Assembly: GCA_049515295.1 (NCBI GenBank)
Contig: JBEKUF010000003.1
Coordinates: forward strand, 1 to 56,662
DNA length: 56,662 nucleotides
DNA from: Verrucomicrobiia bacterium
GTDB taxonomy: Bacteria; Verrucomicrobiota; Verrucomicrobiia; Palsa-1439
Direction: 5' to 3'
Numbering within the stretch: position 1 is the stretch's first letter; each line of letters begins with the position of its first letter. Positions 7,172-56,662 of the stretch are shown here, in pieces. Below the pieces are notes generated by a model that was not told the origin of the DNA, made no database searches, and saw nothing but the letters and a program-made list of their open reading frames with translations. A program made the translations under genes and the position numbers.

Positions 7172-8677
7172 TCACAACAACCGGCGCTGGGTGTCGTTGT
7201 GCACGAGGTCGGAGACGGGGCGGTGGGAGCGGGCGCGGCGCTGTTCCATGACGAACTTGTCCATTTCGGATTCGACGGGGGACGGATAATGGCCGGTGTA
7301 ACAGGCGGTGCAGAATTCGTTCGGGCGCAGGCCGGTGGCGGCGATCATGCCATCGAGCGTGAGATAGCCGATGGAATCGGCGCCGAGGAACTCGCGGATT
7401 TGCTCGAGCGAATTGTTGGCGGCCATCAGTTCCTTGCGGGTGGGGAAATCGATGCCGTAGGCGCACGGCCATTTATGCGGCGGGCAACTGACGCGCATGT
7501 GGACCTCTTTTGCGCCCGCCTCGCGCAGGGTGATGACACGGGCCCGGGCGGTCGTGCCGCGCACGATGGAGTCGTCGACCACGACGACGCGTTTGCCCGC
7601 GACCATTTCCCCGATGAGATTGAGTTTCACGCGGACGCCGAAATCGCGGATGAGCTGGCTCGGCTGGAGGAACGTGCGGCCGACGTAATGGTTGCGGACG
7701 AAGGCATTGCCAAAGGCGATCCCGCTTTGCTCGGCGAATCCCAGGGCGGCCCAGTTGCCGCTGTCCGGCACGGGGATGACAAGGTCGGCTTTGACCGGAT
7801 GCTCGCGGGCGAGTTGGCGGCCAAGGTTGATGCGGACCTGGGCGACGTTTTTGTGGTAGAGATCGCTGTCGGGCCGGGCGAAATATACAAATTCGAAAAT
7901 ACAGAAGGCGCGGGGTTGCTGCGTGTCGGCCCAAGGGTTGACGGAACGGAGACCGTCCTTGTTGATGACGACGATCTCGCCCGGCATGATGTCGCGGACG
8001 TATTCGGCATGGATCAGATCCAGGGCACAGGTTTCGCTGGCCAACACCCAGGCCGCGGCGTCGGCGCGGCCATGCTCGTTCGGAACGGGCAACCGTCCCA
8101 GCACCAGGGGACGGAAGCCGAACGGGTCGCGGATGCCGATGAGTTCGTCCTCGCCCAGGACGACCAGCGAATACGCGCCCTGGAGCCTGCGCATGACCGC
8201 TTCGAGCGAGTGGGCGCGGTCTTCGTCGGTGGGGCGGGCGAGCAGGTGCAGAATGATCTCGCTGTCGGCGGTCGTCTGAAAGATCGAGCCGAGTTCTTCG
8301 AGTTCGGCGCGGAGGCGGGCGGCGTTGGTGAGATTGCCGTTGTGGGCGATGGCGATCTGGCCACAGGCGCAGTCCACGACAAGCGGCTGGGCGTTCTTGA
8401 TGTGGGAACTACCGGTGGTCGAGTAACGGACGTGACCGATGGCGAGATGACCGGGCAGCGAGCGGAGGATGTTCTTGTCGAATACCTGATCGACGAGTCC
8501 CATGCCCTTGAAGGTGCGCAGGTCGACGCCGTCCGAGGCGGTGATGCCGGCGCTTTCCTGGCCGCGATGCTGCAACGCGTACAGCCCGTAATACGTCAGC
8601 TCTGCCGCATTCGGGTGCCCGTAAATTCCAAACAAGCCACAATAATGCCGTGGCCGCGCGCTGTGTTCCGGGTTCAT
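7172..8677 (-). CDS. purF: amidophosphoribosyltransferase
   Basis: Ntn-type catalytic Cys context (HYCGLFGIYGHP...LQHRGQESAGI) and PRTase motif (VVVVDDSIVRGTT). The start MNPEHSARPRHYC gives a 12-aa propeptide; the track ORF extends to 8710. Confidence 0.93.
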   Translation of the reverse strand: MNPEHSARPRHYCGLFGIYGHPNAAELTYYGLYALQHRGQESAGITASDGVDLRTFKGMGLVDQVFDKNILRSLPGHLAIGHVRYSTTGSSHIKNAQPLVVDCACGQIAIAHNGNLTNAARLRAELEELGSIFQTTADSEIILHLLARPTDEDRAHSLEAVMRRLQGAYSLVVLGEDELIGIRDPFGFRPLVLGRLPVPNEHGRADAAAWVLASETCALDLIHAEYVRDIMPGEIVVINKDGLRSVNPWADTQQPRAFCIFEFVYFARPDSDLYHKNVAQVRINLGRQLAREHPVKADLVIPVPDSGNWAALGFAEQSGIAFGNAFVRNHYVGRTFLQPSQLIRDFGVRVKLNLIGEMVAGKRVVVVDDSIVRGTTARARVITLREAGAKEVHMRVSCPPHKWPCAYGIDFPTRKELMAANNSLEQIREFLGADSIGYLTLDGMIAATGLRPNEFCTACYTGHYPSPVESEMDKFVMEQRRARSHRPVSDLVHNDTQRRLL

Positions 8678-8837
8678 TGCTCGGTTGACTCGCTTCGACG
8701 TGCTCCACAATGTCGAACGGACCGCCTCCGACGGAATCCATTAGCCCAACCGATGGCAAATAGCAAGGGGCAACGCCCCGCTGGGGAGGATTATTTTGGT
8801 TGATGGAATGACAGCGCTTGCGGAACGGACCGGCAGC

Positions 8838-9338
8838 CTACGTCGAGGCGGTCGCAGAAGCATTCGCTGCCTGATCGCCGTCGAGAACTTGTTCCAGCGT
8901 CTTCAACAGGTCAGCGTTACTAAACGGCTTGGGAATGAACCGTTCGACCCCTTCGCGGAAATCGGAAGGCAATTCGTCGGAATTCACGCCCGAGACCGCC
9001 ACTACTTTTGCGTTCGGATTCAGCTTGCGCAGGAACTGGAGCGTCTCCGCGCCGTTGAAGCGGGGCATGTTGAAATCGAGCAGCACCGCGCCGATGTCAT
9101 CTCCTGCATAGCGCGCCATGTCGAGTCCCTTCGGACCGGTGCTGGAGGCGAGCACATTGTAGCCTTCGCCACCAAGCACCGCGCGCATGGTGTCCAGAAA
9201 ATTCGGATCGTCATCAATGATCAGAATGGTGGTTTTCGGTTCGGCGGTGTCGACGGAGTGTTTCGTCCGCGGCCTCAGCTCGATCGACTGCGAGCCACTC
9301 TTCCCGAACAATGCAACGGCGGCGCCAAAAATGCCCAT
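8838..9338 (-). CDS. stand-alone response-regulator receiver domain protein
   Basis: TTILIIDDDPNF...AVLLDFNMPRFNG...KVVAVSG...RFIPKPF. ATG at 9338 is preceded by GAGAGGAAAA. The longer track ORF upstream looks non-coding. Confidence 0.8.
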   Translation of the reverse strand: MGIFGAAVALFGKSGSQSIELRPRTKHSVDTAEPKTTILIIDDDPNFLDTMRAVLGGEGYNVLASSTGPKGLDMARYAGDDIGAVLLDFNMPRFNGAETLQFLRKLNPNAKVVAVSGVNSDELPSDFREGVERFIPKPFSNADLLKTLEQVLDGDQAANASATAST

Positions 9339-9587
9339 ATGTTTTCCTCTCACTCTTACTGCGCGACTTCCGCGGTGCTTGATGCACCACGCCTCGGGAT
9401 AACGCAGGGTTTGTGCCAAAGAAGTGGGGGAGACCAAACAAAGAGAGTCCCTGCAGGCGGCGTGTGATATGACCGATAAGTTGTCCATGCAACGGCTTGG
9501 GAACAAGACGCTTAGGTCGACACTTCTGAGTGGTAGCGGAGGCTCTGAAGAGTGAGGAAACGCGAAATTCTCGCCGGGCAGTCCGAA

Positions 9588-10649
9588 CTATTGCCCGATA
9601 AGTACAGGCGCACCCACGGGAGCTGGGACGCCACCCGCACGTTCGACCGTCACGGCAAACTTGTCAATGCACGCCATGTCCTTGGCCAGCTTGACCGGGA
9701 ACACTGCGTGGCCCGAATCATCCGTCCAGCCCATGCCTGCCGCGACCGGCGGTTCACTGCCGCAGATCGCCCAAAGTTCCAGACATTTACCCTGGCCCTG
9801 TTGGACGGGAGAGCAATTGGAGACGACCATAAATCCCGTTTTCCTGCCGCCATTCCAATACACCTTGGCTACGACCTTGCTTTCGCCCTTGGGGTCGACA
9901 AGCGGCGTCACGCGAGTGGCGGGATCCATGAACAAATCGAGCGACGAAGTTTCCTCGTCCATCTTCCTCTGCAGCACGGCCGTTTGCAGGTTCTGTTGCT
10001 CGACCTGGTCGCGCATCCGGCCGGTCGCCCGCAGCAATCCATCCTTCTCTTCCGACAACTGTTTGTTGGCGGCGCGCAACGCATCCAGATCATGCTTCTG
10101 TTCCACGTTCTTGGTGCGAAGCTGCTCCAACTTCCCGCCAAAGTCCTTGTTTTGGGCCTCAAGGCGGCCATTCAGATCGGCGAGGCTGCCCTGCTGCTCC
10201 CTATTCGTGGCGACAAGACTATTGTACGCATCCGTTGTCGCCCGAAGCTGGCGCGTCACGATTTGAAGTTGAGTGTTCAGGTTCATCAATACAACGGCGA
10301 GCACGGCCGCCGCAGCCCACGGGACGAGACGGACGATGACCGCGCCAACATGAAAGCCCGGCGGTTTCGCACGCGGGGCGGGAACAGCCACCGCAGCGCC
10401 AGCCGGTGCAGTCGTAGGTCGTTTGCCGTCGTCAACCGCTGCCGCGATCCGATCGTACAGGTTTGGCGACGGCTTCGCCGATGGCGCCGCCAGGGCAATC
10501 TGGTCCGCGACCGCCTGATACTCAGCCAACTCCGCGATACATCGTTCGCGGTTCTCGGCGATGTACCGCTCAAAATTGTGCAGCTCGTCTCCGTCGAGCG
10601 CGCCGACGACGTAGAGCGGGAGCATCTCGCGGAATGCCTCGTGAGTCAT
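9588..10649 (-). CDS. anti-sigma factor (N-terminal zf-HC2-like anti-sigma domain, TM helix, coiled coil, RskA-like C-domain)
   Basis: MTHEAFREMLPLYVVGALDGDELHNFERYIAENRERC..., TM segment VPWAAAAVLAVVLMNL, C-terminal ...CLELWAICGSEPPVAAGMG. The start overlaps the sigma gene stop. Confidence 0.75.
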   Translation of the reverse strand: MTHEAFREMLPLYVVGALDGDELHNFERYIAENRERCIAELAEYQAVADQIALAAPSAKPSPNLYDRIAAAVDDGKRPTTAPAGAAVAVPAPRAKPPGFHVGAVIVRLVPWAAAAVLAVVLMNLNTQLQIVTRQLRATTDAYNSLVATNREQQGSLADLNGRLEAQNKDFGGKLEQLRTKNVEQKHDLDALRAANKQLSEEKDGLLRATGRMRDQVEQQNLQTAVLQRKMDEETSSLDLFMDPATRVTPLVDPKGESKVVAKVYWNGGRKTGFMVVSNCSPVQQGQGKCLELWAICGSEPPVAAGMGWTDDSGHAVFPVKLAKDMACIDKFAVTVERAGGVPAPVGAPVLIGQ

Positions 10650-26548: not shown

Positions 26549-26604
26549 CCACAGCCAGTATATTGGCCGCGCCGACCCAATCCCAACCCAAAAACGCGCG
26601 TCCG

Positions 26605-26892
26605 CTACTCGGTCGGACTGGGCGCAGGCGCTTCGGGCACGGCCTCGCCTTCGCCGGCGAGTTCGTACGTGAGCTTGCCCTCGCTGATTTCTTTCAGTGC
26701 GATTTCGGAGAAATCCATCCGCGCATCGGTCTGCGTAATCGGGCGATGGCCTTGGGCAAGCTGACGGACGCGCCTTGACACCAGGTTGACAAGCAACTCG
26801 GGGTTGGGAACACGTTGCTGCGCAGGCTCCAGATATTTACTCTTCATCCGTAAAGGAATCGCAACTCTAGGGGAAACCGTTTCCATCGACAA
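26605..26892 (-). CDS. rpoZ: DNA-directed RNA polymerase subunit omega
   Basis: YLEPAQQRVPNPELLVNLVSRRVRQLAQG core, typical RpoZ length and motif. Confidence 0.8.
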   Translation of the reverse strand: MSMETVSPRVAIPLRMKSKYLEPAQQRVPNPELLVNLVSRRVRQLAQGHRPITQTDARMDFSEIALKEISEGKLTYELAGEGEAVPEAPAPSPTE

Positions 26893-44192: not shown

Positions 44193-45626
44193 CTACGGCG
44201 AGGGTGAAGCTCCCACAAACTTGTCCTGTTTCCACAATCCGTCGAAGACTTTCCCGTCTGGATACGTCATTTTACCAGTCCCATCCATATTCCCATCTCG
44301 GAATTGCCCTACGTACCTGCGGCCATCGGGCCATGTCATCGAGCCAATTCCATCAGGGAGATCGGCTGAGCCATCGACGACTTTCCAGTCCCCTTTGTAT
44401 TCTCGTCCATCCTTCCACGTAATCGTCCCGCCGCTCCTGGTTCCGTCGCGGTTCCACGCCCCCACCTCGGTTGTCCCATCTGGTGCCACCCACGTTCCGC
44501 TTACCCTGTACTCCTGACCTGCCCGCCACTCCCCTTGTTGGTGAGTTCCCGCCGGTGATGTAATTTCTCCCCGCCCGTTACGCTTGTCATCTTCGTATTC
44601 GCCAACGTACTTTGTCCCATCTGCCCACGTGAGCGTCCCTTGGCCGCTACGTTTGCCATCCCGAAACTCCCCCTCGTACTTCAACCTGTTTGGATACGTT
44701 TCCGTCCCTTGGCCGTTCTTTCGGCCATCCTTCCACCCTCCTATGTATTTGCGTCCATCCGGCAACGTGTACGTCCCCTGGCCATTCTGCTCGTCATCCT
44801 GAAACTCTCCTGCGTATTTGCGTCCATCTGGCCACGTGAGGGTCCCTTGGCCATTCCGTCTGCCATCCTTGAACTCTCCTACGTACTTGCGTCCATCTGA
44901 AAACGTATAGGTCCCCTGACCGCTACGCTTGCCATCCTGAAACTCCCCCTCGTACCTCCATCCATTGGGATACGTTTCCGTCCCTTGGCCGTTCTCCCGG
45001 CCATCCTTAAATTCCCCCACGTACTTCCACCCATTGGGATACGTTTCCGTCCCTTGACCATTCTGCCTGCCATCCTTAAATTCCCCAACGTACTTCGACC
45101 CATCGGGATCCGTTTCCGTCCCCCGGCCATCCGACTTGTCGTGCTTAAACTCTCCCACGTACTTCCGTCCATCGGGAAACGTTTCCGTCCCCTGGCCACT
45201 CCGCTCGCCATCCTTCCATTCTCCGACGTATTTGAGTCCATCCGGCCAGGCCAGTGTCCCCTGGCCATTCCGTTTGTCATTCTTGAACCCTCCAACGTAC
45301 GTCGCTCCATCTGGATACGTCTCCGTCCCCTGGCCGTTGCCACTGCCATCCTTGAACTCTCCAACGTACTTCGTTCCATCCGGCAACGTTGCCGTCCCTT
45401 GTCCATTCAGCTTGCCATCCCGAAACTCTCCTGCGTACGTCGCCCCATCCGGCCCCGTGAGCGTCCCCTGGCCATTCGGCTTGCCGTGTCGAAACTCGCC
45501 AACATACTTCGCCCCATTGGAGAAGGTTTTCGACCCCTGGCCATTTCGCACGCCGCATCCACAGAGGAACGCGCACAGCATTGGGATGGCAATTCTTGCC
45601 GCAAGTAACAGGCTCGGTCGCTTCAT
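44193..45626 (-). CDS. MORN-repeat lipoprotein
   Basis: Start at MKRPSLLLAARIAIPMLCAFLCGC (lipobox-like). About 14 canonical plus about 5 degenerate 23-aa units of the type Y-V-G-E-F-K-D-G-K-R-N-G-Q-G-T. Confidence 0.85.
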   Translation of the reverse strand: MKRPSLLLAARIAIPMLCAFLCGCGVRNGQGSKTFSNGAKYVGEFRHGKPNGQGTLTGPDGATYAGEFRDGKLNGQGTATLPDGTKYVGEFKDGSGNGQGTETYPDGATYVGGFKNDKRNGQGTLAWPDGLKYVGEWKDGERSGQGTETFPDGRKYVGEFKHDKSDGRGTETDPDGSKYVGEFKDGRQNGQGTETYPNGWKYVGEFKDGRENGQGTETYPNGWRYEGEFQDGKRSGQGTYTFSDGRKYVGEFKDGRRNGQGTLTWPDGRKYAGEFQDDEQNGQGTYTLPDGRKYIGGWKDGRKNGQGTETYPNRLKYEGEFRDGKRSGQGTLTWADGTKYVGEYEDDKRNGRGEITSPAGTHQQGEWRAGQEYRVSGTWVAPDGTTEVGAWNRDGTRSGGTITWKDGREYKGDWKVVDGSADLPDGIGSMTWPDGRRYVGQFRDGNMDGTGKMTYPDGKVFDGLWKQDKFVGASPSP

Positions 45627-45713
45627 CGTCGGCTCCGGTTCAGACAGCTTCTGATTGCCGGTTGTACCACTCTTGCGGGTTTTCTTCAAGCCCGTCGCGA
45701 TTCCATCCCGCGT

Positions 45714-47696: not shown

Positions 47697-47773
47697 GGGC
47701 GCTTAGCTCAGTTGGCCAGAGCACCTCGTTTACACCGAGGGGGTCAAAGGTTCAAGTCCTTTAGCGCCCACCA
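47697..47773 (+). tRNA. tRNA-Val (anticodon TAC)
   Basis: Hand-folded cloverleaf: acceptor GGGCGCT/AGCGCCC, D stem GCTC/GAGC, anticodon stem CCTCG/CGAGG with loop TTTACAC, T arm AAAGG-TTCAAGT-CCTTT. Encoded CCA. Confidence 0.93.
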
Positions 47774-47866: not shown

Positions 47867-47944
47867 GGGGGTGTAGCTCAACTGGTTCAGAGCGCTGCCC
47901 TGTCACGGCAGAGGTTGCGGGTTCGAGCCCCGTCACTCCCGCCA
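47867..47944 (+). tRNA. tRNA-Asp (anticodon GTC)
   Basis: Acceptor GGGGGTG/CACTCCC (one G-T pair), anticodon stem CTGCC/GGCAG with loop CTGTCAC, T arm GCGGG-TTCGAGC-CCCGT. Encoded CCA. Confidence 0.93.
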
Positions 47945-47953
47945 ATTTTTCTT

Positions 47954-47992
47954 GCCACAACAAGTTATTATTCTGCTTGTTGTGGCATTTTT
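47954..47992 (+). terminator. rho-independent terminator after the tRNA pair
   Basis: GCCACAACAAG ttattattctg CTTGTTGTGGC ATTTTT (11-bp perfect stem plus T-run). Confidence 0.8.
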
Positions 47993-48162
47993 CTCTGTCA
48001 AGATTTGCTCCCCGCATTTGGCTAAAAACAGCCAATCACTCACCCGTTTTAGGGCATTTTCAGGTCGTCGGGTGAGTGCTCTTCGGGGCAAAAAAGAGCA
48101 ACGGGCTCGATAATGCGGGCAGTTGCCGAGGAGGAACGGGGCAGGACTCTGAACAGTCGAGC

Positions 48163-48224
48163 AACACCCCAACCCGCTTCATGGGCAGCAATGGCGGGCA
48201 ACGGCGGCGGGAGGCTATGGCAGG
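48163..48224 (+). repeat. G-rich co-oriented element, copy G1 (includes a remnant of the flp 3' flank)
   Basis: caacaccccaacccgcttcatgggcagcaatggcgggcaacggcggcgggaggctatggcagg; compare with 48441-48524. Confidence 0.75.
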
Positions 48225-48248
48225 CTACCTGCTACTCAGGGGAGGTTT

Positions 48249-48422
48249 ATGAATAAGCATCTGCAAAAACTTGTTCGGGTGATCACCAGGAAATCGGGTC
48301 AGAGTCTGGTCGAGTACGCACTGATTCTGGCATTGATTGCCGTGGTCGCAATCGTAGTCCTACGGGGTATCGGCGCCCACGTTAACAACACGCTGTCGAC
48401 CATCAACTCGAACCTGCCATGA
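48249..48422 (+). CDS. flp: Flp/Fap-family type IVb pilin (57 aa; below the ORF-track size cut-off)
   Basis: Manual translation: MNKHLQKLVRVITRKSGQSLVEYALILALIAVVAIVVLRGIGAHVNNTLSTINSNLP. G/xxxVEY processing motif plus hydrophobic helix. RBS GGAGG 5 nt upstream. Confidence 0.85.
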   Translation: MNKHLQKLVRVITRKSGQSLVEYALILALIAVVAIVVLRGIGAHVNNTLSTINSNLP

Positions 48423-48470
48423 CCTTCGGCTGAGGGCAGTCGCCAGCAGCCCTCCACCCCCACTCGATTC

Positions 48471-48524
48471 ATGGCAGGGGCGATGGCGGCGGGTTTGGGC
48501 GGAAACGGGCGGCGGGAGGCTGGC
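48471..48524 (+). repeat. G-rich co-oriented element, copy G2
   Basis: atggcaggggcgatggcggcgggtttgggcggaaacgggcggcgggaggctgg. Contains a strict G4 motif at 48491-48516. Confidence 0.8.
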
Positions 48525-48548
48525 AAACTGTATGCTTATTCCAGGAGC

Positions 48549-49013
48549 ATGGCTGCAAGTAATTGCCGTCAAAAACCGTGCATTCTTGCTATCGACGATG
48601 AGGAGATTTTTCTGGGCTTCCTCAAGGTGGCGTTGGAATGCTTGGGCTACAGAGTGTTTATTGCCTCCAATCCACTGGAAGCCCTCATGGTTTATGAAGA
48701 ACGTTGGCGAGAGATTGACATGGTGGTATTGGACTTCTTGCTACCCCCACTGACGGGCGACTTCGTCTTCGATGAACTCCAACGCTTCAATCCAGACGTG
48801 CGAGTCGTATTGCTGACGGGCTGTGATGAACCCGTGGCAGCCAAGATGTTTCAGAAAGGTCTGCGCGGCTACCTGAAAAAGCCCTTCAGCCCGACTGACC
48901 TTGCTCAGAAAGTGGAGGATGCAATCAGAACGCCATCGGCACGCCCCGCCACATCGCCACCACCCGCTCCAACTAACGGCGGCAGGGGGCAATGGCGGCG
49001 GGATACGGCTTGA
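48549..49013 (+). CDS. stand-alone response-regulator receiver domain protein
   Basis: ATG at 48549 after AGGAGC. CILAIDDEE...MVVLDFLLPPLTG...VVLLTGC...YLKKPF. The last ~12 codons are supplied by G-rich copy G3. Confidence 0.8.
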   Translation: MAASNCRQKPCILAIDDEEIFLGFLKVALECLGYRVFIASNPLEALMVYEERWREIDMVVLDFLLPPLTGDFVFDELQRFNPDVRVVLLTGCDEPVAAKMFQKGLRGYLKKPFSPTDLAQKVEDAIRTPSARPATSPPPAPTNGGRGQWRRDTA

Positions 49014-49029
49014 CGGCGGCGGGGGGGCA
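48977..49029 (+). repeat. G-rich co-oriented element, copy G3
   Basis: cggcggcagggggcaatggcggcgggatacggcttgacggcggcgggggggcag. Confidence 0.7.
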
Positions 49030-49121
49030 GAATTTAATTCTCCACCTCAATCTGCCGGGTCTGGCTTTTTCTGCTTTCCTCTCGCTTCCGCCAGAGTTCT
49101 AATGGAGTTCACACACATGGC

Positions 49122-49502
49122 ATGAAGACACAGTCACTTCGAAACTTCGACGTCGTCCTAAACAGGGTTCTGGACGTAGCCGGTTTCATTACGATGGCGG
49201 TTGTTCTGACCGCTATCGTTGCGAAGTTGGTCGGCTGGAAAGGAGACCCCGTTGCCCTGTTCCTGCGGCTTCCCCTTTCCGTTCTGATAGCGTGCGATAT
49301 TGCTATTAGCGGCATCAGTGCAGAAGTCGTTGCGTTGACCCTCAGAGCGTGTCTTCCCTCCAGGGCGAGGCATAGTGAGCGGACACGCTTTGGATTACTC
49401 GTCGTCTTATGGATTTTGTTTGCAGTCGTTCAGATTACGTTCTTGATACGGTACCAGCAACCGCTCCAACAATGGTGGCGAACATCAGGCGGCTTCTTTT
49501 AA
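49122..49502 (+). CDS. hypothetical small membrane protein (3-4 TM)
   Basis: 126-aa ORF with hydrophobic segments (VAGFITMAVVLTAIVAKLV, LSVLIACDIAISGISAEVVAL, FGLLVVLWILFAVVQITFLI). Confidence 0.45.
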   Translation: MKTQSLRNFDVVLNRVLDVAGFITMAVVLTAIVAKLVGWKGDPVALFLRLPLSVLIACDIAISGISAEVVALTLRACLPSRARHSERTRFGLLVVLWILFAVVQITFLIRYQQPLQQWWRTSGGFF

Positions 49503-49589
49503 CGGGTTCGGGCGGGAACTGGCGGCGAGGACTATGGGCGGGGGGACGGCGGCGGAGGCAATGGCGGCGGGATGCGGGCGGGTTGGGCG
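49503..49589 (+). repeat. G-rich co-oriented element, copy G4 (double length)
   Basis: cgggttcgggcgggaactggcggcgagg...ggcggcggaggcaatggcggcgggatgcgggcgggttgggc. Strict G4 motif at 49569-49587. Confidence 0.8.
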
Positions 49590-49611
49590 AAAAGATTGGT
49601 AGGCGGTTCGT

Positions 49612-49959
49612 TCAACTGCGAACTTGGGGATGCCGTCGTTGTGCAAAAGCATGCTCTAAGAACCCAATCGAGAACACAACGCCTCCAGCGATACCGCTGC
49701 ACAGCAAGACATCCGAATAAAACCATCCCCCGAATGTCGCCTCCAACCACCAGCGTGCCCAAGTCTGTCCTACAAAGAACGTGACCAGGCAAAACAACAG
49801 CAAGCAAGAACCGACGAGCAACAGAACTGATGATAGGCACCTCTGCTGTCGGAAAAGCGATGCCGACCCATAGACGAGGATGGGAGGTACGAGGGACAAG
49901 AGGAAGAGGGATAGTAAATAAAATGCCAAGCGACCGTTCATCATTGCCACTTCTACCAC
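49612..49959 (-). CDS. hypothetical small membrane protein
   Basis: 115-aa ORF with segments LAFYLLSLFLLSLVPPILVY, VLLLVGSCLLLFCLVTFFV and VLLCSGIAGGVVFSIGFL. Start uncertain. Confidence 0.4.
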   Translation of the reverse strand: MVEVAMMNGRLAFYLLSLFLLSLVPPILVYGSASLFRQQRCLSSVLLLVGSCLLLFCLVTFFVGQTWARWWLEATFGGWFYSDVLLCSGIAGGVVFSIGFLEHAFAQRRHPQVRS

Positions 49960-49982
49960 TGACGCAGGTTGGCTTCAAGTTC

Positions 49983-50014
49983 AGGCGGCAGTCCCGGCGG
50001 CGGGAGGCGGGCGG
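49983..50014 (+). repeat. G-rich co-oriented element, copy G5 (short)
   Basis: aggcggcagtcccggcggcgggaggcgggcgg. Confidence 0.6.
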
Positions 50015-50085
50015 TTGTTCCGCTGGATTGCCTGTGATAAAATGGACGCATGGATGACCGAGACCGGTGAGCGCGATTGCTGAAC

Positions 50086-51318
50086 ATGACGAGACTCACG
50101 ACAAAGGCGGTAATAGGCGCGCTGATGGGACTACTGATCTTGTCTGGCGGTCTCCTGTGGCTGCGCCGGCAACGGCCCTCACAGGCACAAAAGAACCAAC
50201 AGCCAACACAACCTTCGCGAATTGATACGCCCAAAACTGGACGGCCGATCAAGGCGAAACCGGGAACAATCGTGCTCCAAGAAGTGTCTGTATGGGACAC
50301 GAACCAACGATCACAAGTTTCAAGCGTTGGCAGTTACCAGTGTCCGCCCACGCCGAATTGGCCTGTCCAAGCTGCACAGGCCGTTCTCACCACGCCGGCT
50401 CACCAGTTGTTGGCACGATTGACTCAACTCACGTCTAACGTCAACTCCCTCAGCGGCGAGCAAGCTGCTGAGATCAACGACTTGCTGGCAAAACTTGCGG
50501 CGGGCGGCACGGCAGCCATTCCTGCGATCCGACAATTCTTGCAGGACGGTCAGGATTTCAGTTTCGATTCGATCGCCGGTGGCGATCTCGTCAATTACGG
50601 AACGATTCGACTCGGTCTCATTGACGCGCTGCAACAGATTGGCGGCCCCGAAGCGCTGGAACTGGCGGCATCCACTCTCCAAACCACGGCCGATCCTTTT
50701 GAAATCGCCTTTTTGAGCCGTTACCTCGAACAGCAAGCTCCCGGACAGTTTCGCGAACTCGAACTGACCGCTGCCCGCGAGTCGCTCGCCCTGGCTGGAC
50801 AAGTTCCAATCGCAGGTGTGAGCGCACTGTTTGAGCTACTTCAGGCATATGGCGATGAGAACGTCGTTTCCAGCCTGGAGAAAGCCGCGTCACAGTGGAG
50901 TTACTACGCAACCCTTGCGTTGGCGGGACTTCCGAACGGCGCAGGCATCCCAACTCTGATCAAATTGGCGCAAGACCCCGCTGTGAGTGCGATGGGCGCT
51001 GGCGATTTTGCGCTGCGCCCACTCGCGCAAGTGGCGCTGCTATATCCCGATGCAGCGAGCGCGCTTCTCGATGCAGCCCGGCAGAATCAAATCCCCGATA
51101 CAGCTTGGTCAACCGTTGCCGGTGCTCTGGCCGGAAGTTACTTGCAATACGGGAACCAGATTTTCGGCAGCACTTCTCCGGCATTGAATTGGTCGCCGGA
51201 GCAAGTGAGTCAGCAAATTGCACTCATCAACCAGTTGTTGACCGTCACCACGAGTCCCGCCGGTCGACAGGCACTCCAAGAGGCGTCGGCGTCGGTTTCT
51301 AGCAGGCTGACGAAGTGA
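50086..51318 (+). CDS. membrane-anchored protein with HEAT/armadillo-like helical repeats
   Basis: N-terminal TM (AVIGALMGLLILSGGLLWL), then Ala/Leu-rich helical repeats (AIPAIRQFLQDGQD; IDALQQIGGPEALELAASTL; GIPTLIKLAQDPAV). Confidence 0.45.
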   Translation: MTRLTTKAVIGALMGLLILSGGLLWLRRQRPSQAQKNQQPTQPSRIDTPKTGRPIKAKPGTIVLQEVSVWDTNQRSQVSSVGSYQCPPTPNWPVQAAQAVLTTPAHQLLARLTQLTSNVNSLSGEQAAEINDLLAKLAAGGTAAIPAIRQFLQDGQDFSFDSIAGGDLVNYGTIRLGLIDALQQIGGPEALELAASTLQTTADPFEIAFLSRYLEQQAPGQFRELELTAARESLALAGQVPIAGVSALFELLQAYGDENVVSSLEKAASQWSYYATLALAGLPNGAGIPTLIKLAQDPAVSAMGAGDFALRPLAQVALLYPDAASALLDAARQNQIPDTAWSTVAGALAGSYLQYGNQIFGSTSPALNWSPEQVSQQIALINQLLTVTTSPAGRQALQEASASVSSRLTK

Positions 51319-51349
51319 GGGGTCTATCGGTTTGCCATCACGCCGTGAG

Positions 51350-51379
51350 GGCAGGGGGGGGCTTGCGGGCGGGAGGTAG
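51350..51379 (+). repeat. G-rich co-oriented element, copy G6 (short)
   Basis: gagggcagggggggggcttgcgggcgggagg. It is followed by the hairpin CCCCGTCAGG tagtcgccg CCTGACAGGGG. Confidence 0.55.
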
Positions 51380-51456
51380 TCACCTCCAAAACCGGTTCGA
51401 ACTCAGCCCCGTCAGGTAGTCGCCGCCTGACAGGGGCTCACCTGTCAACTCTCTGC

Positions 51457-51768
51457 TCAGCGTTTGAGTCCATCGCGCCAAGCAATCGCTTCGAGTTCGA
51501 CCCGGACTGCGTCCATGACGGGAACCACGGGTCGTGCCTCAAATACAAAAGCAGGGAGGGTCGAGCAGAACTTGTGAACGGTCAACGGATCATCGCAGTC
51601 CACCAACATATACCCACCCCAATCGCCCACTCGCACCACGAACAACTCGATCTTGAAATTGTCGGGCGCCTTCCATTGACGGAAAACCTCCAGTATCCGC
51701 TTCTGGGCATTCTCGTATTCCATTGGCGATCCCTGCGGACGCTCGAACCAACTGATCATATACTTCAT
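51457..51768 (-). CDS. DUF3303-like small protein
   Basis: MKYMISWFERPQGSPMEYENAQKRILEVFRQWKAPDNFKIELFVVRVGDWGGYMLVDCDDPLTVHKF... matches my recollection of the DUF3303 pattern. Confidence 0.55.
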   Translation of the reverse strand: MKYMISWFERPQGSPMEYENAQKRILEVFRQWKAPDNFKIELFVVRVGDWGGYMLVDCDDPLTVHKFCSTLPAFVFEARPVVPVMDAVRVELEAIAWRDGLKR

Positions 51769-51920
51769 CGGTATTCTCCCTGTTTGCTCCGTGCTGCCAT
51801 TTAGGTTTGAGGTATTATCGCGAGACGGACGTTCACCCGATTGCGGAAAACCATCAAGGAGCGCACCTGCCGCGACCCGTGGACAGCAGTATAGAACTGA
51901 ACTGGGGAGATATGCAAGGG

Positions 51921-51990
51921 GGCGAGGATGGGGGTGGGTTTCAGGCAGAACCGGCGGCGGAATGCGGGCGGGGAGGGGCGGACTTGGCAG
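51921..51990 (+). repeat. G-rich co-oriented element, copy G7
   Basis: ggcgaggatgggggtgggtttcaggcagaaccggcggcggaatgcgggcggggaggggcggacttggcag. Confidence 0.75.
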
Positions 51991-51994
51991 GACG

Positions 51995-52249
51995 CTACCG
52001 GCTCCACCTGTTGATGCAACGTGACCGCTGACGTGGAGAACAACCCCGTGTGGCTAATTCGAGGAAGACTTCGTCGATGGTCTTTCGCTTAAAAATAGCA
52101 CGGTCGATAATTTCAGTGTAAACATCATCCTCGACCACGATGCGTTGCGTGGAGCCGTCTTTTTCGTCGGAGCAGGAGATACAGAGCAGTTCCCGTCTTC
52201 GGAGGAGGCGGAAGACATACGTCGAGATTTCCAGCACGTGTCCATTCAT
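51995..52249 (-). CDS. possible small protein (84 aa) with CxxC
   Basis: An internal ATG at 52249 within track ORF 51995..52531 gives MNGHVLEISTYVFRLLRRRELLCISCSDEKDGSTQRIVVEDDVYTEIIDRAIFKRKTIDEVFLE... GGAGAG lies about 15 nt upstream. Weak support. Confidence 0.3.
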   Translation of the reverse strand: MNGHVLEISTYVFRLLRRRELLCISCSDEKDGSTQRIVVEDDVYTEIIDRAIFKRKTIDEVFLELATRGCSPRQRSRCINRWSR

Positions 52250-52258
52250 GAGACCGAA

Positions 52259-52367
52259 CCTCGACTCTCCACGACAACGTAAGCCTGATTGCGGGAATAG
52301 CAAGTGGTGCTGGGGGCGGATTCGGGCGGGAACTGGCGGCGGGATGCGGGCGGGGGCCATGGGGGGA
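52259..52367 (+). repeat. solo copy of the box + G-tail part of the ~185-nt unit (copy G8)
   Basis: cctcgactctcc acgacaacgtaagcctgattgcgggaatagcaagtggtgctggggg cggattcgggcgggaactggcggcgggatgcgggcgggggccatgggggg. Strict G4 motif at 52341-52366. Confidence 0.85.
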
Positions 52368-52683
52368 TTATTCCGTATTTCCCCTCTTCTTGCCCGTTGG
52401 TGTCCCACTGCATGTAGGTGGTTTCCCCGCCAGTTAAAACAGGGTTTCCCCCCACATACAACCCGCCCCGAATCCGCTACTAATATACCGTGGTGTCGCG
52501 TCAATATGCACCTAGTACGCTTCGACGACAAATTTCATTGCGGCCCGGGACTGGTTTTGCTATCCTTAGCCATCCACTTGCTGTCGGCCTTGGTGACAGG
52601 CCGGGTATACGGAAGAGGATGGGGCTAACAACAGCCCGGCCACGCCGCAGGCCTCTGAGCCCCTCCAGAATGCACACGTCACA

Positions 52684-53661
52684 ATGACTGATTCAACATC
52701 ATTGAAAGAGACCGGCACCAAACGCCACCCCATTCTCGTGACGGGGTCGCCGCGGTGCGGCACGACTTGGGTGGGAAAGGTCATTGCCGCATCACCATCG
52801 GTCGGCTACATCGCGGAGCCGTTCAACCTTCTTTGCCGACCGGGACGCTGTGCGGCGCATTTCCCGTACTGGTTCTATTACATTTGTGAGGAGAACGAAG
52901 AACAGTACTTCCATCACATCCAGCGAACCTTGGGGTTTCAGTATCAGGTCTTGGAGGAACTCAAGGTGACCCGCACGCCACGGGACGTGGCGCGGATGGT
53001 GCGCGATTTTTCGCAGTTTCAGTTCTACCGGATTCGGCGTTGTCGTCCGTTGCTGCGTGATCCACAGGCCTTTTTCTCGGCGGAATGGCTGGCCCGGCGG
53101 TTTTCCTGCGACGTGGTGGTTGTGATTCGCCAACCGGCGGCGTTTGTCGCCAGCTTCAAATCGCTGCATTGGGAGCATCCGTTCGACCATTTCCTGAAGC
53201 AACCTCTGCTGATGCGCGATCACCTGTACCCGTTCGAAGATGAGATTCGCAAGTTCGCCGAACGGAAGCAGGCCGTCGTCGATCAGGCCATTTTGCTGTG
53301 GCGGTTGATTCACAGCGTCATCCTCCGCTACCAGAAGACGCACCCCGAATGGACGTTCGCGCGGCACCGCGATGTTTCGATCGACCCGATCGATGAATTC
53401 CGCAGGATTTTCGAGCGAGTGGATTTGCCCTATGGCACCCGCGAAGAGATCCATACGCGCCGCCTTTGCATGGCGGAGCCGAAACAGAAGGGGTACGCTT
53501 GGAATGAAGTCGTCCGCAACTCGGGGCAGAACTTGGATTTGTGGCGGACGCGGCTGACTGGAGATGAAATGCAACGGGTGGGCGAGAAGTGTTTCGACCT
53601 CGCACGCGAGTTCTACGGCGAAGAAGAACTGCATGACATCGGACTCATCCCAAGCGCCTAG
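52684..53661 (+). CDS. sulfotransferase family protein
   Basis: 5'-PSB-like loop (ILVTGSPRCGTTWVGKVI) and 3'-PB-like motif (VVVVIRQPAAFVASF). Confidence 0.7.
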   Translation: MTDSTSLKETGTKRHPILVTGSPRCGTTWVGKVIAASPSVGYIAEPFNLLCRPGRCAAHFPYWFYYICEENEEQYFHHIQRTLGFQYQVLEELKVTRTPRDVARMVRDFSQFQFYRIRRCRPLLRDPQAFFSAEWLARRFSCDVVVVIRQPAAFVASFKSLHWEHPFDHFLKQPLLMRDHLYPFEDEIRKFAERKQAVVDQAILLWRLIHSVILRYQKTHPEWTFARHRDVSIDPIDEFRRIFERVDLPYGTREEIHTRRLCMAEPKQKGYAWNEVVRNSGQNLDLWRTRLTGDEMQRVGEKCFDLAREFYGEEELHDIGLIPSA

Positions 53662-53894
53662 GTGTTCTCTTTTCCCTCCTAGCGGGGACGATGGGAATGC
53701 ACAATAAGACCTTGGTCGTACTGGATTGCTGTCCACGAGCGCCCCGCCCGTTCGTGGATTGAACTGGTATCTGACGAACAGATTCGGGAACTTTATCAAG
53801 AACAATGCAAGGCGGCGCAACATCCCCCCTCCGTCCCACCCTCGGCTCCAAAGCCTCGCTCGAACAATCCCGGTCATACTTGACCCGTTTGTTT

Positions 53895-53957
53895 GCGGGG
53901 GCAACAGCGGCATACGGCGGCGGAACTGGCGGCGGAATGCGGGCGGGGTGGGGGGCG
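53895..53957 (+). repeat. G-rich co-oriented element, copy G9
   Basis: gcgggggcaacagcggcatacggcggcggaactggcggcggaatgcgggcggggtggggggcg. Confidence 0.8.
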
Positions 53958-54441
53958 CTAACGCTGGAAGATGTGCTGATGCGGTTGCGCGTTAACCCAA
54001 CAAGTGTACGCGCTAATTGACAATCACTGAACACCTCTGTTCAACAAGCTGGACAGTCGGTTACCGCCTCTTGAGACGCACTGAAATCGCGTCGTCCCAG
54101 TAATCGGTTGATGCGCCGAACGTTGTGCGCGTACGGAGCTCGCGCCCTCGGCATCATTACTTGTTGGCACACTAACTGCCCTTGAAAAATGCGGAGACCA
54201 CGGCTCTTGTCCGAGCCTGTGGAAAGAAACTGGGATGAGGTCACAAGAATTGGAACAACAAGAGGAGTTGCCGTTCCGCGTCTGGTTGTTGCTGGGTGGC
54301 GGATTCTGGCTTGGATTGGTCGTGTACTTGGCGTTCCAGCTTCAAAGATGAATTTGCCTTCCCAGCGATACTCAGTGCCAATCAACTGGGTGTGAGGATT
54401 GACTGAGAGCGTGCCATAACCTCGGTTCAGTGGGAGAATGT

Positions 54442-54615
54442 ATGAAGAAGCGTCTGCAAAAACTCGTTCACGTGGTAACGAAGAAATCGGGTCAAAGCTT
54501 GGTCGAATACTCATTGATTCTGGCATTAATTGCCGTGGTCGCAATCGTAGTTCTCAGAGGTCTCGGTCACCACATTAACAACACGCTGTCGTCCGTCAAC
54601 GCAAACCTGCCGTGA
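54442..54615 (+). CDS. flp: Flp/Fap-family type IVb pilin, second copy
   Basis: MKKRLQKLVHVVTKKSGQSLVEYSLILALIAVVAIVVLRGLGHHINNTLSSVNANLP; 45/57 residues identical to copy 1 by hand alignment. Confidence 0.85.
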   Translation: MKKRLQKLVHVVTKKSGQSLVEYSLILALIAVVAIVVLRGLGHHINNTLSSVNANLP

Positions 54616-54665
54616 CCTTCGGCTGAGGACAGTTGCCGGCAGACCGACACCCCCACCCGATTCCT

Positions 54666-54840
54666 GGGGGGGCAACGGCGGTGGGGACAAACAAGAGGAG
54701 AGTCGAGTCTCTTCTCTCGCTTTTGAACCCACGAGCCGTTCCCAAGGGTGGGTATTTCTCCCTGAAACAATCTTACTTGACGAGAGGGTCGCTCAACTCT
54801 CCACGGCAACGTAAGCCCAATCGCAGGAACCGCCATGGGG
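54666..54840 (+). repeat. structured repeat unit a (G-run G10, A-rich linker, long hairpin, GTAAGCC box)
   Basis: Hairpin arms GGAGAGTCGAG (54697-54707) and CTCAACTCTCC (54792-54802), with one mismatch. Inner stem ACCCAC/GTGGGT (54727-54732 / 54748-54753). Box ACGGCAACGTAAGCCCAATCGCAGGAAC. Confidence 0.75.
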
Positions 54841-55060
54841 CAAACACCCCATTGTCCGCCGATGACGTGCCGCATAGACTCCGGCTCCATCGGGCTCCTG
54901 ATTGGCAGAGCCCGCAAAAGGTCGGGCATTATTTTGGCAGTGTAGGGATCGACATTCTCTCGCTTCGACATCCCCTGTCGAAGCACCAGCACATTGGGGG
55001 CGTGAACGGAGGCTACACTGCCATTATTATTCAAGTCAGGGAAATGACTGGGGGATAGTT

Positions 55061-55225
55061 TGGGGGGCATCGGCGGGAACAGGCGGGGAAAAAAAGGAGA
55101 GTCGAGGCTCAACTCTACGCAACCCCAGCCGCACCCAATGCGGCTGAACGATCTACCCTGCGAGAGCTTCTCGACTCTCCGCTGCACCGTAAGCCTGATT
55201 GCGGGAATAGCAAGTGGTGCTGGGG
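55061..55225 (+). repeat. structured repeat unit b (G11, hairpin, box)
   Basis: Arms GGAGAGTCGAG (55096-55106) and CTCGACTCTCC (55170-55180), perfect 11 bp. Inner stem AGCCGCA/TGCGGCT (55127-55145). Box GCTGCACCGTAAGCCTGATTGCGGGAATAGCAAGTGGTGCTGGGG. Confidence 0.85.
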
Positions 55226-55243
55226 CGTTTTCGGTTGAGATCA

Positions 55244-55430
55244 GGCGGCGGAGCAGGGCGGCGGGATCCGGCGGTCGGATCGCAACAGGGGAAAAACAAT
55301 CGGAGAGTCGAGGCTCAACTCTCACATGCGTGGACTACCCCCGCCCTTCGGGCGTTGCTGTTGAGAGGGTCGCTCGACTCTCCACTGCAATGTAAGCCGG
55401 ATCGGGGGGAATAGCAACCGGTGCCGGGGG
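55244..55430 (+). repeat. structured repeat unit c (G12, hairpin, box)
   Basis: Arms GGAGAGTCGAG (55302-55312) and CTCGACTCTCC (55373-55383), perfect 11 bp. Inner stem CGCCC ttc GGGCG (55342-55354). Box ACTGCAATGTAAGCCGGATCGGGGGGAATAGCAACCGGTGCCGGGGG. Confidence 0.85.
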
Positions 55431-55492
55431 CGGGTTTTGGGGAGAACTGGCGCCGGAACTGCGGAGCGGGGGCTCTAAAAGGGCGGCGAACA
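55431..55492 (+). repeat. G-rich co-oriented element, copy G13 (terminal)
   Basis: cgggttttggggagaactggcgccggaactgcggagcgggggctctaaaagggcggcg. Confidence 0.7.
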
Positions 55493-55671
55493 ATCCTGAG
55501 TGAAGAAGATACTTGGCGAATTCATTAGGTTTATCAGGGAATGGGGCTTAGGTTGTTGTTGGTCTCAGCGAGCTGTCTCACTCCGACCAAGACCCATAAC
55601 TGTTTAAACCACGCCATGAGTTGAGGGCGGTCGATCAGGCTGCCCCAACGCTCGTGGAAGAAAGTAGAACA

Positions 55672-55977
55672 ATGCTTGTGATGGAACCGGTTTCCGCTTC
55701 AGTCAAAGTCCCTGTACGGATAAAGATAAATTATCTGGAGCCCGCGCAGTTACACATTCCCGGCCCCGAGTTGCTTATCAACGTGGTCAGAAGGCGTGTC
55801 CGCCAACTCGTACAGGGGCATCGCCCTATCACGCAGACGGATGCGCGGATGGATTTCTCCGATATCGCGCTGAAGGAAATTAGCGAGGGCAAGCTCTTCT
55901 ACGAACTCGCCGATGAATCCGAAGCCGTGCCCGAGGCCAGCCAACAGCACGACGGAGTAACGCCAGCGCGTTTTTGA
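55672..55977 (+). CDS. rpoZ: second RNA polymerase omega-subunit paralogue
   Basis: MLVMEPVSASVKVPVRIKINYLEPAQLHIPGPELLINVVRRRVRQLVQGHRPITQTDARMDFSDIALKEISEGKLFYEL...; 58/72 core residues identical to the copy at 26605-26892 by hand alignment. Confidence 0.75.
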   Translation: MLVMEPVSASVKVPVRIKINYLEPAQLHIPGPELLINVVRRRVRQLVQGHRPITQTDARMDFSDIALKEISEGKLFYELADESEAVPEASQQHDGVTPARF

Positions 55978-56217: not shown

Positions 56218-56662
56218 TCAAGCGGCGTTGCGGTGATAGAAGTTGAGTAACCCGCCGAGGCGTTCCGTCTTCACCACAGCCCCTTCTTGCTGAAAGAGAC
56301 AAGCGCCGGGAAACGGAATGGCATTCTCGATACCCTGATGATTGCGTTCGGCGTGATAGTGCGCCAAGTACTCCCGGATCACATACTGCAAGGAGTTTTC
56401 GCCGAAGAGGACGAACTGCTCCACGCATTCCATCTTGATGATCTTCACGAACCGTTCCGCAAACGCATTCAAGTTCGGGGAATATGGCGGAAGTTTCACG
56501 ACGGCGATACCGGCGGCGTTCAGAATCCCGTCGAAAGATCGAGTGTATTTCGCATCGCGGTCATGGATCAGGTAATGCGCTCCGCCAGGTTCCCCCTCCC
56601 AGCCGGTCACATTTCGTGCGGTCTGCTTCATCCACTCCTCGTTCGGATTCTGGCCCATTCCC
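56218..56662 (-). mobile_element. transposase, rve (DDE integrase-core) C-terminal part; gene starts beyond the right edge
   Basis: ...YLIHDRDAKYTRSFDGILNAAGIAVVKLPPYSPNLNAFAERFVKIIKMECV...YLAHYHAERNHQGIEN, typical of IS481/IS3-like integrase-core transposases. Confidence 0.8.

Follow-up and report, generated by a model that had tools for sequence, protein, structure and literature searches.

G-rich, uniformly oriented intergenic elements in a cassette-like gene array of Verrucomicrobiae

Introduction

Downstream of the tRNA-Asp gene on a 56,662-nt stretch of DNA from a soil or peat Verrucomicrobiia bacterium (contig JBEKUF010000003.1, assembly GCA_049515295.1; the whole stretch is hereafter called the window), small and mutually unrelated genes are separated by G-rich elements that all point in the same direction, even where the genes do not. 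What kind of element marks gene boundaries in this way? An earlier note, made from the sequence alone, had read the locus as a cassette array with boundaries oriented by the array, and not as a family of terminators or promoters. Here we describe the 13 elements (G1–G13), their cargo and their counterparts in other genomes and metagenomes (loci with L numbers). The feature is real, reproducible and lineage-wide. On balance, we lean towards the interpretation that the G elements are boundary and exchange sites of a Verrucomicrobiae-specific gene-cassette array, which is integron-like but no integron. Searches of the searchable literature found no description of such elements.

Results

A G-rich element in every gene gap

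The array comprises ten genes between tRNA-Asp and its far end (flp1, a receiver gene, two genes for small membrane proteins, a HEAT-like gene, a DUF3303 gene, an 84-aa gene, a sulfotransferase gene, flp2 and, counted in, an rpoZ paralogue) and 13 G-rich elements on the + strand within positions 48182–55457 (Table 1). Patches were defined as G-rich by at least 16 G per 30 nt on the + strand, and each gap between called genes has one. The elements are 40–105 nt long; G makes up 55–65% of their + strand, and C is scarce there. Seven of the ten genes are sense to the elements and three are antisense, and the element direction is unchanged at the latter. The 21-mer GGCGGCGGRATGCGGGCGGGG has five matches with up to three mismatches (0.04 expected), none of them on the minus strand or outside the array. 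When four mismatches are allowed, the 7.4-kb array has five matches versus none on either strand of the remaining 49.3 kb.

The earlier note had stated that one copy occupies each gap, that all copies lie on the + strand despite three minus-strand genes, and that no copy occurs elsewhere in the window. All three statements were borne out by the patch count, the gene calls and the 21-mer search. Its gene identifications (Flp, receiver, DUF3303, sulfotransferase, weak HEAT and Rpb6/omega-like) also hold, as does the lower GC content of the array genes (48–58% versus 60% in the rest of the window). The short minus-strand open reading frame (ORF) that it described does correspond to a gene, but the better reading of this gene is the 84-aa ORF of 51995–52249, the called frame, which belongs to a conserved family.

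Sequence, composition and fold of the element

The elements have the consensus ...GG(G)AAC(T/C)GGCGGCGGGA(T/G)GCGGGCGGGG, and the similarity ends abruptly at the 3' edge. A shared G-rich core, as proposed before, is present in the form AACYGGCGGCGGGA[T/G]GCGGGCGGGG with this sharp edge, but only the 3' core is well conserved, and the 5' part consists of a variable number of ~11-nt G-rich units. G1 and G10–G13 are decayed copies.

DNA folds of the 13 elements were no better than those of shuffled sequences (z scores from +1.6 to −2.8, with 12 of the 13 not below −1.9). The element is non-palindromic, and no short-range inverted repeats were found in the gaps G1–G9; because the conserved motif is purine-asymmetric, the element cannot fold back on itself. 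Reading of the 13 gaps revealed no consistent RYYYAAC/GTTRRRY pair, only a lone GTTGGGC at 49583. The two tRNAs were the only Rfam matches at the gathering score, and an E-value search of 47950–55650 returned chance matches only. Intrinsic terminators (a hairpin plus a U tract) were absent from the G elements and were found only at the U hairpins described below, on the minus strand; the total of 14 terminator-like patterns was not above that in shuffles (8.8 ± 3.5). The sigma-70 promoter consensus was not matched at the elements. The absence of a fold, a terminator or a sigma-70 match there supports the earlier view that they are neither a terminator nor a promoter family. On inspection, a sigma-54 promoter reading of the core was rejected because its GG-to-GC spacing is one base too short, and an extracytoplasmic function (ECF) sigma promoter was rejected because there is no CGT-type −10. 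The ATG in GGGATGCGG was also rejected as a start codon, being absent from the GGGAGGCGG variant and followed by differing frames.

Regions with a G4Hunter score of at least 1.5 on the + strand are concentrated in the array (10 of 14), and all eight regions scoring at least 1.8 lie there. G1, G5 and G12 score below 1.5, and some copies lack four runs of GGG.

Distribution of the element and its arrays

When 185,579 species genomes were scanned with the 20-nt core, 85 stretches were recovered, most of which are single matches in unrelated high-GC genomes, several of them clearly coding. Matches outside the Verrucomicrobiae were not accepted as arrays, being mostly single and in several cases inside genes. 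About 15 of the 85 stretches lie in Verrucomicrobiae metagenome-assembled genomes, many with the flanking motifs of the window, and these loci are arrays of the same type, with small genes on either strand and co-oriented G patches between them. Homologues of Usp, a protein encoded in the flank of the window's array, carry Verrucomicrobiae names, which places the window in this class. The reference genomes bearing the core have one to three exact copies each. A viral origin was rejected, the two matches in viral contigs being chance hits in DnaB-like coding sequence of phages with 69–71% GC. L072 was also rejected as an array; its G patches are array-like, but its genes are ordinary.

A metagenome scan with the 25-nt core returned 33 stretches, in which loose matches numbered 73 on the seeded strand versus none on the opposite strand. 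The strand counts in 12 arrays (71 kb) were 20:0 for TGGCGGCGGGA and 18:1 for GGCGGCGGGAT. Loose cores occurred 12 times per 33 kb of array versus once per 146 kb of flank, a density ~50-fold higher inside. The arrays are situated after tRNA-Asp, after tRNA-Gly(CCC), or between ordinary genes without a tRNA. Most of them open with the start hairpin CACTCACCCG...CGGGTGAGTG, after which GGGTGATAGTTTTTGG and then the first G element usually come. This hairpin was found at tRNA-Asp (L049, L098–L100), at tRNA-Gly (L038, L081) and at non-tRNA sites (L091, L094, L133).

Cassettes recur in permuted order and keep their orientation

The 126-aa membrane-protein gene, the 84-aa gene, the flp2 unit and a structured block (described below) were each found in other arrays beside unrelated neighbours. 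Homology of the 126-aa gene (49118–49508) starts ~4 nt 5' of its ATG and reaches its own G variant, GGCGGGAACTGGCGGCGAGGA. That of the 84-aa gene extends from ~5 nt past the stop codon, directly after the left G element, through the D3 motif into the right element. Irrespective of gene direction, the co-travelling element is on the right side for both the sense 126-aa gene and the antisense 84-aa gene. Homology of the flp2 unit starts just after G9 (82–87% identical to L078, L104 and L124). Members of the 84-aa family (64 clusters, all Verrucomicrobiia or unnamed) were found in seven contexts with differing neighbours, and in all contexts examined the gene runs antisense to the elements. The flp and receiver genes are sense both in the window and in L094, and Flp plus receiver modules recur in other arrays (L094, L049). 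The order of cassettes is permuted between L078 and L111. Across 31 array loci (177 locus pairs), orientation relative to the elements was kept in 422 alignments and not in 2. The recurring 413-aa ORFs are strain variants of the HEAT-like gene found in the window.

Strain-level changes at G4 and at the tRNA-Asp locus

Across the array, two metagenome contigs (L119 and L123) share 99% identity with the window. Over 7.4 kb, the window and L119 differ in 44 clusters, all of 1–3 bases except one unit-level rearrangement in the element G4. In L123, G4 contains an extra 1.26-kb cassette for a TPR protein, which has no counterpart in the window or L119. The insert is placed immediately after ...GATGCGGGCGGGG / ...GGCGGCGGGATGCGGGCGGGG of G4, that is, after the GCGGGCGGGG of the core, and ends in GGCGGGCGGG ahead of the shared TTGGGCGAAAAG; therefore, GCGGGCGGG bounds both of its sides. 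At G4, whole GGCGGCGG-type units are arranged in a different mosaic in each of the window, L119 and L123. The sequence shared at this sole mapped junction amounts to only 9–10 bp. L067 and L128, considered as a second strain-level event, were not used because the replacement lies within a coding region.

More distant relatives (Usp 85–89% identical) keep tRNA-Val, tRNA-Asp and the start element. At the orthologous tRNA-Asp locus, L099 has no cassette, L100 has one small gene, and L098 has a sulfotransferase gene and a TPR gene. The earlier note had named two checks on its reading, the distribution of the motif and the position of gene-content breakpoints. In the window and related genomes, the motif is locus-restricted and uniformly oriented; differences in gene content coincide with the elements in the TPR indel at G4, in the zero to two cassettes at the relatives' tRNA-Asp, and in the re-ordering of cassettes among arrays.

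A repeat of the tRNA-Asp 3' end, GAGCCCCGTCACTCCCGCCA (20–28 nt), has a second copy that bounds inserts in L049, L098 and L119/L123, where no integrase is present. The window and L001 contain no second tRNA-end repeat, and none was found at the right end of the window's array. In L119 (7468–9391) and L123 (4730–6562), the insert is an extra 1.83 kb between tRNA-Asp and the array (compared with 47918–47945 of the window), with the 20–28-nt repeats at both ends; neither an integrase nor any Pfam domain was recognisable in it. A 0.5-kb version of this insert is present in L049.

Discussion

Proposed mechanism of cassette exchange

From these observations, we infer that a dedicated process uses the core as its crossover site. 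In the proposed model, each cassette would consist of one gene in either orientation, or of a non-coding structured unit, with a G element as its right end. Exchange would take place between co-oriented elements, at or just after the core ...GGCGGCGGGA(T/G)GCGGGCGGGG, and would excise, insert, delete and re-order cassettes but never invert them; excision and integration instead of inversion would be expected because the elements are co-oriented. The outcome would be a hypervariable array beginning at a conserved start hairpin, often directly 3' of a tRNA gene. The catalyst might be a trans-encoded host enzyme that recognises the core, or the exchange might be stimulated by a G-quadruplex or an R-loop on the G strand. 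Sequence-specific recognition is favoured because the exact 21–25-mer is kept across species, and G-quadruplex formation is probably not the whole story because three elements score below 1.5 in G4Hunter. The 9–10 bp shared at the L123 junction are short for RecA-dependent exchange, which points to either a site-directed process or a microhomology-mediated deletion.

A more far-reaching form of this model is that the arrays represent a previously unrecognised cassette system, in which single genes are captured, excised and re-ordered at asymmetric, G-quadruplex-prone sites without a linked integrase, through either a trans-acting enzyme that reads GGCGGCGGGATGCGGGCGGGG or transcription-driven G-quadruplex/R-loop recombination. 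We put this forward only tentatively.

Several points weigh against exchange at the G elements. There is one clean strain-level cassette indel only, and it is equally explained as a deletion between 9-bp direct repeats. No integrase or recombinase was found in the window, in the 3.9 kb past its right edge (where the earlier note had suggested looking for one), or in ~20 array contexts, and the element is without the inverted symmetry typical of the core sites of tyrosine or serine recombinases. A second, conventional integration route acts at tRNA-Asp, as the inserts bounded by tRNA-end repeats in L049, L098 and L119/L123 indicate. G patches are enriched for homology ends, but any intergenic feature would show some enrichment, and this evidence is weak alone. 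Finally, the left ends of the cassettes are fuzzy; for example, the 90 nt 5' of the 126-aa membrane-protein gene are not common to L070.

The search for a recombinase consisted of Pfam scans of ~90 ORFs from array loci. They gave transposases of insertion sequences (IS; rve_3, DDE_Tnp_1, DDE_Tnp_1_4, DDE_3 and UPF0236), one TrwC relaxase and one weak Y1_Tnp match 3 kb from an array, none of which recurs. To the right of the window's array, an IS3-type element is followed by pntAB. Two other observations were made in these contexts. Next to its array, L112 has a 412-aa ORF (8086–9321) with a phage-type rolling-circle Rep domain (REP_ORF2-G2P) and a PD-(D/E)XK nuclease gene; this ORF was not seen in other arrays, and the two genes could be an integrated single-stranded DNA element. 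In L094 (~8524–9843 and 1–25), two UPF0236 (ISLre2-type) IS copies are inserted in G elements, with the end CGCTAGTGTTAGAGAATTGTCAG abutting the element, which suggests a target preference of this IS for G elements.

Alternative explanations

The elements might instead act on transcription in a polar manner, as Rho utilisation (rut) sites that stop leftward or read-through transcripts at gene boundaries and let rightward ones pass, the shuffling being due to separate, ordinary recombination. Transcripts of the minus strand, and only of that strand, are 55–65% C with little structure at the elements, matching the composition of rut sites, which are unstructured, C-rich and G-poor over ~60–80 nt. 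Leftward transcripts thus carry a C-rich, G-poor stretch of 40–100 nt with no hairpin, an element lies just past the stop codon of each antisense gene, and the polarity of the array fits an insulator role. However, a rut site needs composition only, yet the exact 21–25-mer is kept where the cassettes are just 70–90% identical. Termination is required in every operon, yet the elements occur in arrays only, and an element also precedes the antisense genes, where a terminator would be useless. Moreover, the strain-level indel and the unit mosaicism fall inside the element. We therefore consider this explanation unlikely, and a Rho-type polar role may exist alongside the recombination role.

Shared binding sites of a regulator or nucleoid protein that mark accessory islands would account for the ~11-nt periodicity, which resembles iterons, for the variable number of units and for the sequence-specific conservation of the core; such sites would simply travel by linkage. 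Elements are located 20–90 nt upstream of several sense start codons. The distance from element to start codon nevertheless ranges from ~29 to ~490 nt, the array direction is kept at antisense genes, and the insertions and unit exchanges within the element are left unexplained, making this proposal improbable.

We attach similarly little probability to a passive origin, in which unstable G-rich tracts arise by slippage and gene conversion in acquired DNA and all arrays descend from one ancestral island. The number of units does vary between 99%-identical strains, the 5' parts are degenerate, and decayed copies (G1, G10–G13) are present. Against this, the same core occurs at unrelated chromosomal sites and in many species, with exactly one copy per gap and absolute polarity, and permuted cassette order is not produced by common descent with loss.

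An ordinary cluster of attC sites lacking an integron integrase (CALIN), with attC sites that escaped recognition, is very improbable. Its layout would fit (one co-oriented site per cassette and small accessory genes, 7/10 of them sense), and integrons have been reported in Verrucomicrobiota (PMC8618304), which counts in its favour; classical integrons may thus occur in this phylum as well. The gaps G1–G9 have no imperfect palindrome and no consistent pair of core sites, and no integron integrase (IntI) was found in any context looked at. Decayed tandem duplications, which the earlier note had listed as an alternative, were rejected, since no relationship links the cassettes and the element is preserved from genome to genome.

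Features of the array and its surroundings

The coordinates of the array features are collected in Table 1.

Table 1. Features of the array region in the window (+ strand coordinates; aa, amino acids)
Feature	Position	Strand	Remarks
tRNA-Val	47697–47773		window GC ~60%
tRNA-Asp(GTC)	47867–47944	+	array begins ~95 nt 3' of tRNA end
Array-start hairpin CACTCACCCG...CGGGTGAGTG	48037–48078	+	same hairpin opens other arrays
G1	48182–48225	+	GGCGGCGGGAGGC variant
flp1, Flp/Fap pilin cassette gene	48249–48422	+	Pfam match; DNA 74% identical to flp in L078
G2	48469–48527	+	G-rich patch
Single-domain response-regulator receiver, cassette gene	48549–49013	+	final codons overlap G3
G3	48973–49031	+	G-rich patch
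126-aa membrane protein, cassette gene	49122–49502	+	88% identical to L070, L121
G4, composite of ~three units	49501–49606	+	recombination hot spot among strains; putative crossover region GCGGGCGGG at 49574–49582
115-aa membrane protein, cassette gene	49612–49959	-	antisense to array
G5	49981–50028	+	G-rich patch
413-aa cassette gene, weak HEAT-repeat match	50077–51318	+	Pfam match
G6	51338–51385	+	G4Hunter 2.24
DUF3303 cassette gene	51457–51768	-	antisense; Pfam match
G7	51902–51997	+	exact core 51953–51973
Conserved 84-aa cassette gene	51995–52249	-	antisense; family of 64 clusters
D3 motif CTCGACTCTCCAC.GCAACGTAAGCC..GGAATAGCAAGTGG	52260–52315	+	5' leader/promoter region of antisense 84-aa gene
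G8	52290–52375	+	exact core 52335–52355
Sulfotransferase cassette gene	52684–53661	+	~130-nt conserved leader upstream, 52360–52490
G9	53914–53975	+	exact core 53928–53948
flp2 cassette	53992–54617	+	flp2 gene 54430–54615 plus upstream region
G10	54657–54695	+	G-rich patch
Hairpin unit U11, GGAGAGTCGAG ... CTCAACTCTCC plus D3	54697–54847	+	92.5% identical to L010
Gene-less cassette, 29-pair structured block	54928–55030	+	in at least 10 arrays
G11	55038–55092	+	G-rich patch
Hairpin unit U12 plus D3	55096–55225	+	minus strand: hairpin, then TTTTTTT
G12	55232–55282	+	G-rich patch
Hairpin unit U13 plus D3	55302–55428	+	repeat family
G13, degenerate copy	55403–55457	+	G-rich patch
rpoZ-like (Rpb6/omega-like) paralogue	55673–55977	+	far array end; no G element after it
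IS3-family (rve_3) transposase	56218–56662	-	closes variable region; pntA/pntB next in L001

The stretch G10–G13 is without genes, as the earlier note had said, but it is not empty; three hairpin units are located there, together with a conserved structured block. The hairpin units (U11–U13) form a second repeat family, in which an 11-bp inverted repeat, GGAGAGTCGAG/CTCGACTCTCC, surrounds a ~60-nt variable tip, with CGTAAGCC..GGAATAGCAAGTGG after it. Read on the minus strand, the family has a promoter-like TTGCTA-N16-TACGTT, a long hairpin and a T-run, and judging from this layout a unit could be a small RNA gene. The repeat is up to 92% identical in other Verrucomicrobiae arrays, and the D3 leader alone precedes the antisense 84-aa gene. 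The structured block is predicted to form a three-stem rod with the outer stem GGCAGTGTAG/CTACACTGCC. Some compensatory changes are seen in it, no Rfam family corresponds to it, and it is a candidate for a new structured RNA.

The leader of the sulfotransferase gene is also found in L098 (~9470–9340), upstream of a sulfotransferase of a different Pfam family, and may be a cis-regulatory element. A hairpin at 53736–53771, CCACGA-GCGCCCCGCCCGT-TCGTGG, has a C-rich loop complementary to the G core. L063 has an identical copy of these 36 nt, and similar ones are located downstream of genes in L010 and in the TPR cassette of L123. The window has two rpoZ-like genes, one at ~26590–26885 on the minus strand and the diverged paralogue at the array end. 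Outside the array, offset self-alignments of the minus-strand ORF at 44193–45689 revealed a coding sequence that repeats internally every 69 nt (23 aa); other Verrucomicrobiae contigs encode similar repeat proteins.

Significance and comparison with known systems

To our knowledge, among systems that store and shuffle cassettes of one gene each, only integrons are well understood. An integron is defined by IntI and folded attC sites, and because the definition rests on those two, every search tool seeks them; the arrays described here lie outside the reach of such tools. If the exchange is site-directed, gene-cassette platforms would have evolved more than once, and surveys would miss a class of them in abundant soil and peat bacteria. 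If it is instead driven by a G-quadruplex or R-loop, the arrays would be a bacterial counterpart of class-switch recombination that shuffles accessory genes. With the conserved 21–25-nt core, cassettes could be amplified by polymerase chain reaction or captured from metagenomes, and the enzyme could be fished for; the core also offers a natural test of G-quadruplex-linked recombination in bacteria.

The arrays resemble integrons and CALINs in having one co-oriented site per cassette, at the array-distal end and independent of gene direction. Their cargo is likewise made up of small, unrelated and mostly sense accessory genes, the cassettes appear in varied arrays and orders, and close strains differ. 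In contrast to the folded attC site with its R and L boxes and GTTRRRY core, the element here is a non-palindromic, G-rich direct repeat; the L123 junction lies in GCGGGCGGG, and no IntI was found in the contexts examined. An integron starts with intI-attI-Pc, whereas these arrays start with a conserved hairpin, often beside a tRNA gene, and the G10–G13 part holds structured non-coding units instead of genes.

The dif/pdif modules are genes bounded by short sites, without a recombinase of their own, that are moved by the host Xer proteins. The present arrays are similar in that their modules are bounded by short conserved sites and no enzyme was found in them. However, dif and pdif sites are 28-bp imperfect palindromes, with pdif in alternating orientation, whereas the G elements are asymmetric and strictly co-oriented.

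The pilE G-quadruplex of Neisseria, with its adjacent small RNA promoter, and the immunoglobulin switch regions are hot spots of G-quadruplex/R-loop recombination. As in these systems, G-rich repeats on one strand are located between exchangeable segments, with pilin (flp) genes among the cargo here, and a deletion between co-oriented G-rich regions would loop out the intervening gene. The G elements differ in that their sequence is conserved beyond the G-tracts and in that some copies do not have four runs of GGG.

The position of the site directly 3' of tRNA-Asp or tRNA-Gly recalls tRNA-integrated islands and cis-mobilisable elements, as do the repeat-bounded inserts without an integrase in the relatives. 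In the present arrays, however, it is the G element that is repeated, each unit is a single gene of 0.3–1.5 kb, and the window has no second tRNA-end repeat. Finally, repetitive extragenic palindromic (REP) sequences and bacterial interspersed mosaic elements (BIMEs) are also short conserved intergenic repeats with a variable composite structure. REPs are palindromic and occur genome-wide in both orientations, whereas the G elements are non-palindromic, confined to the arrays and uniform in orientation.

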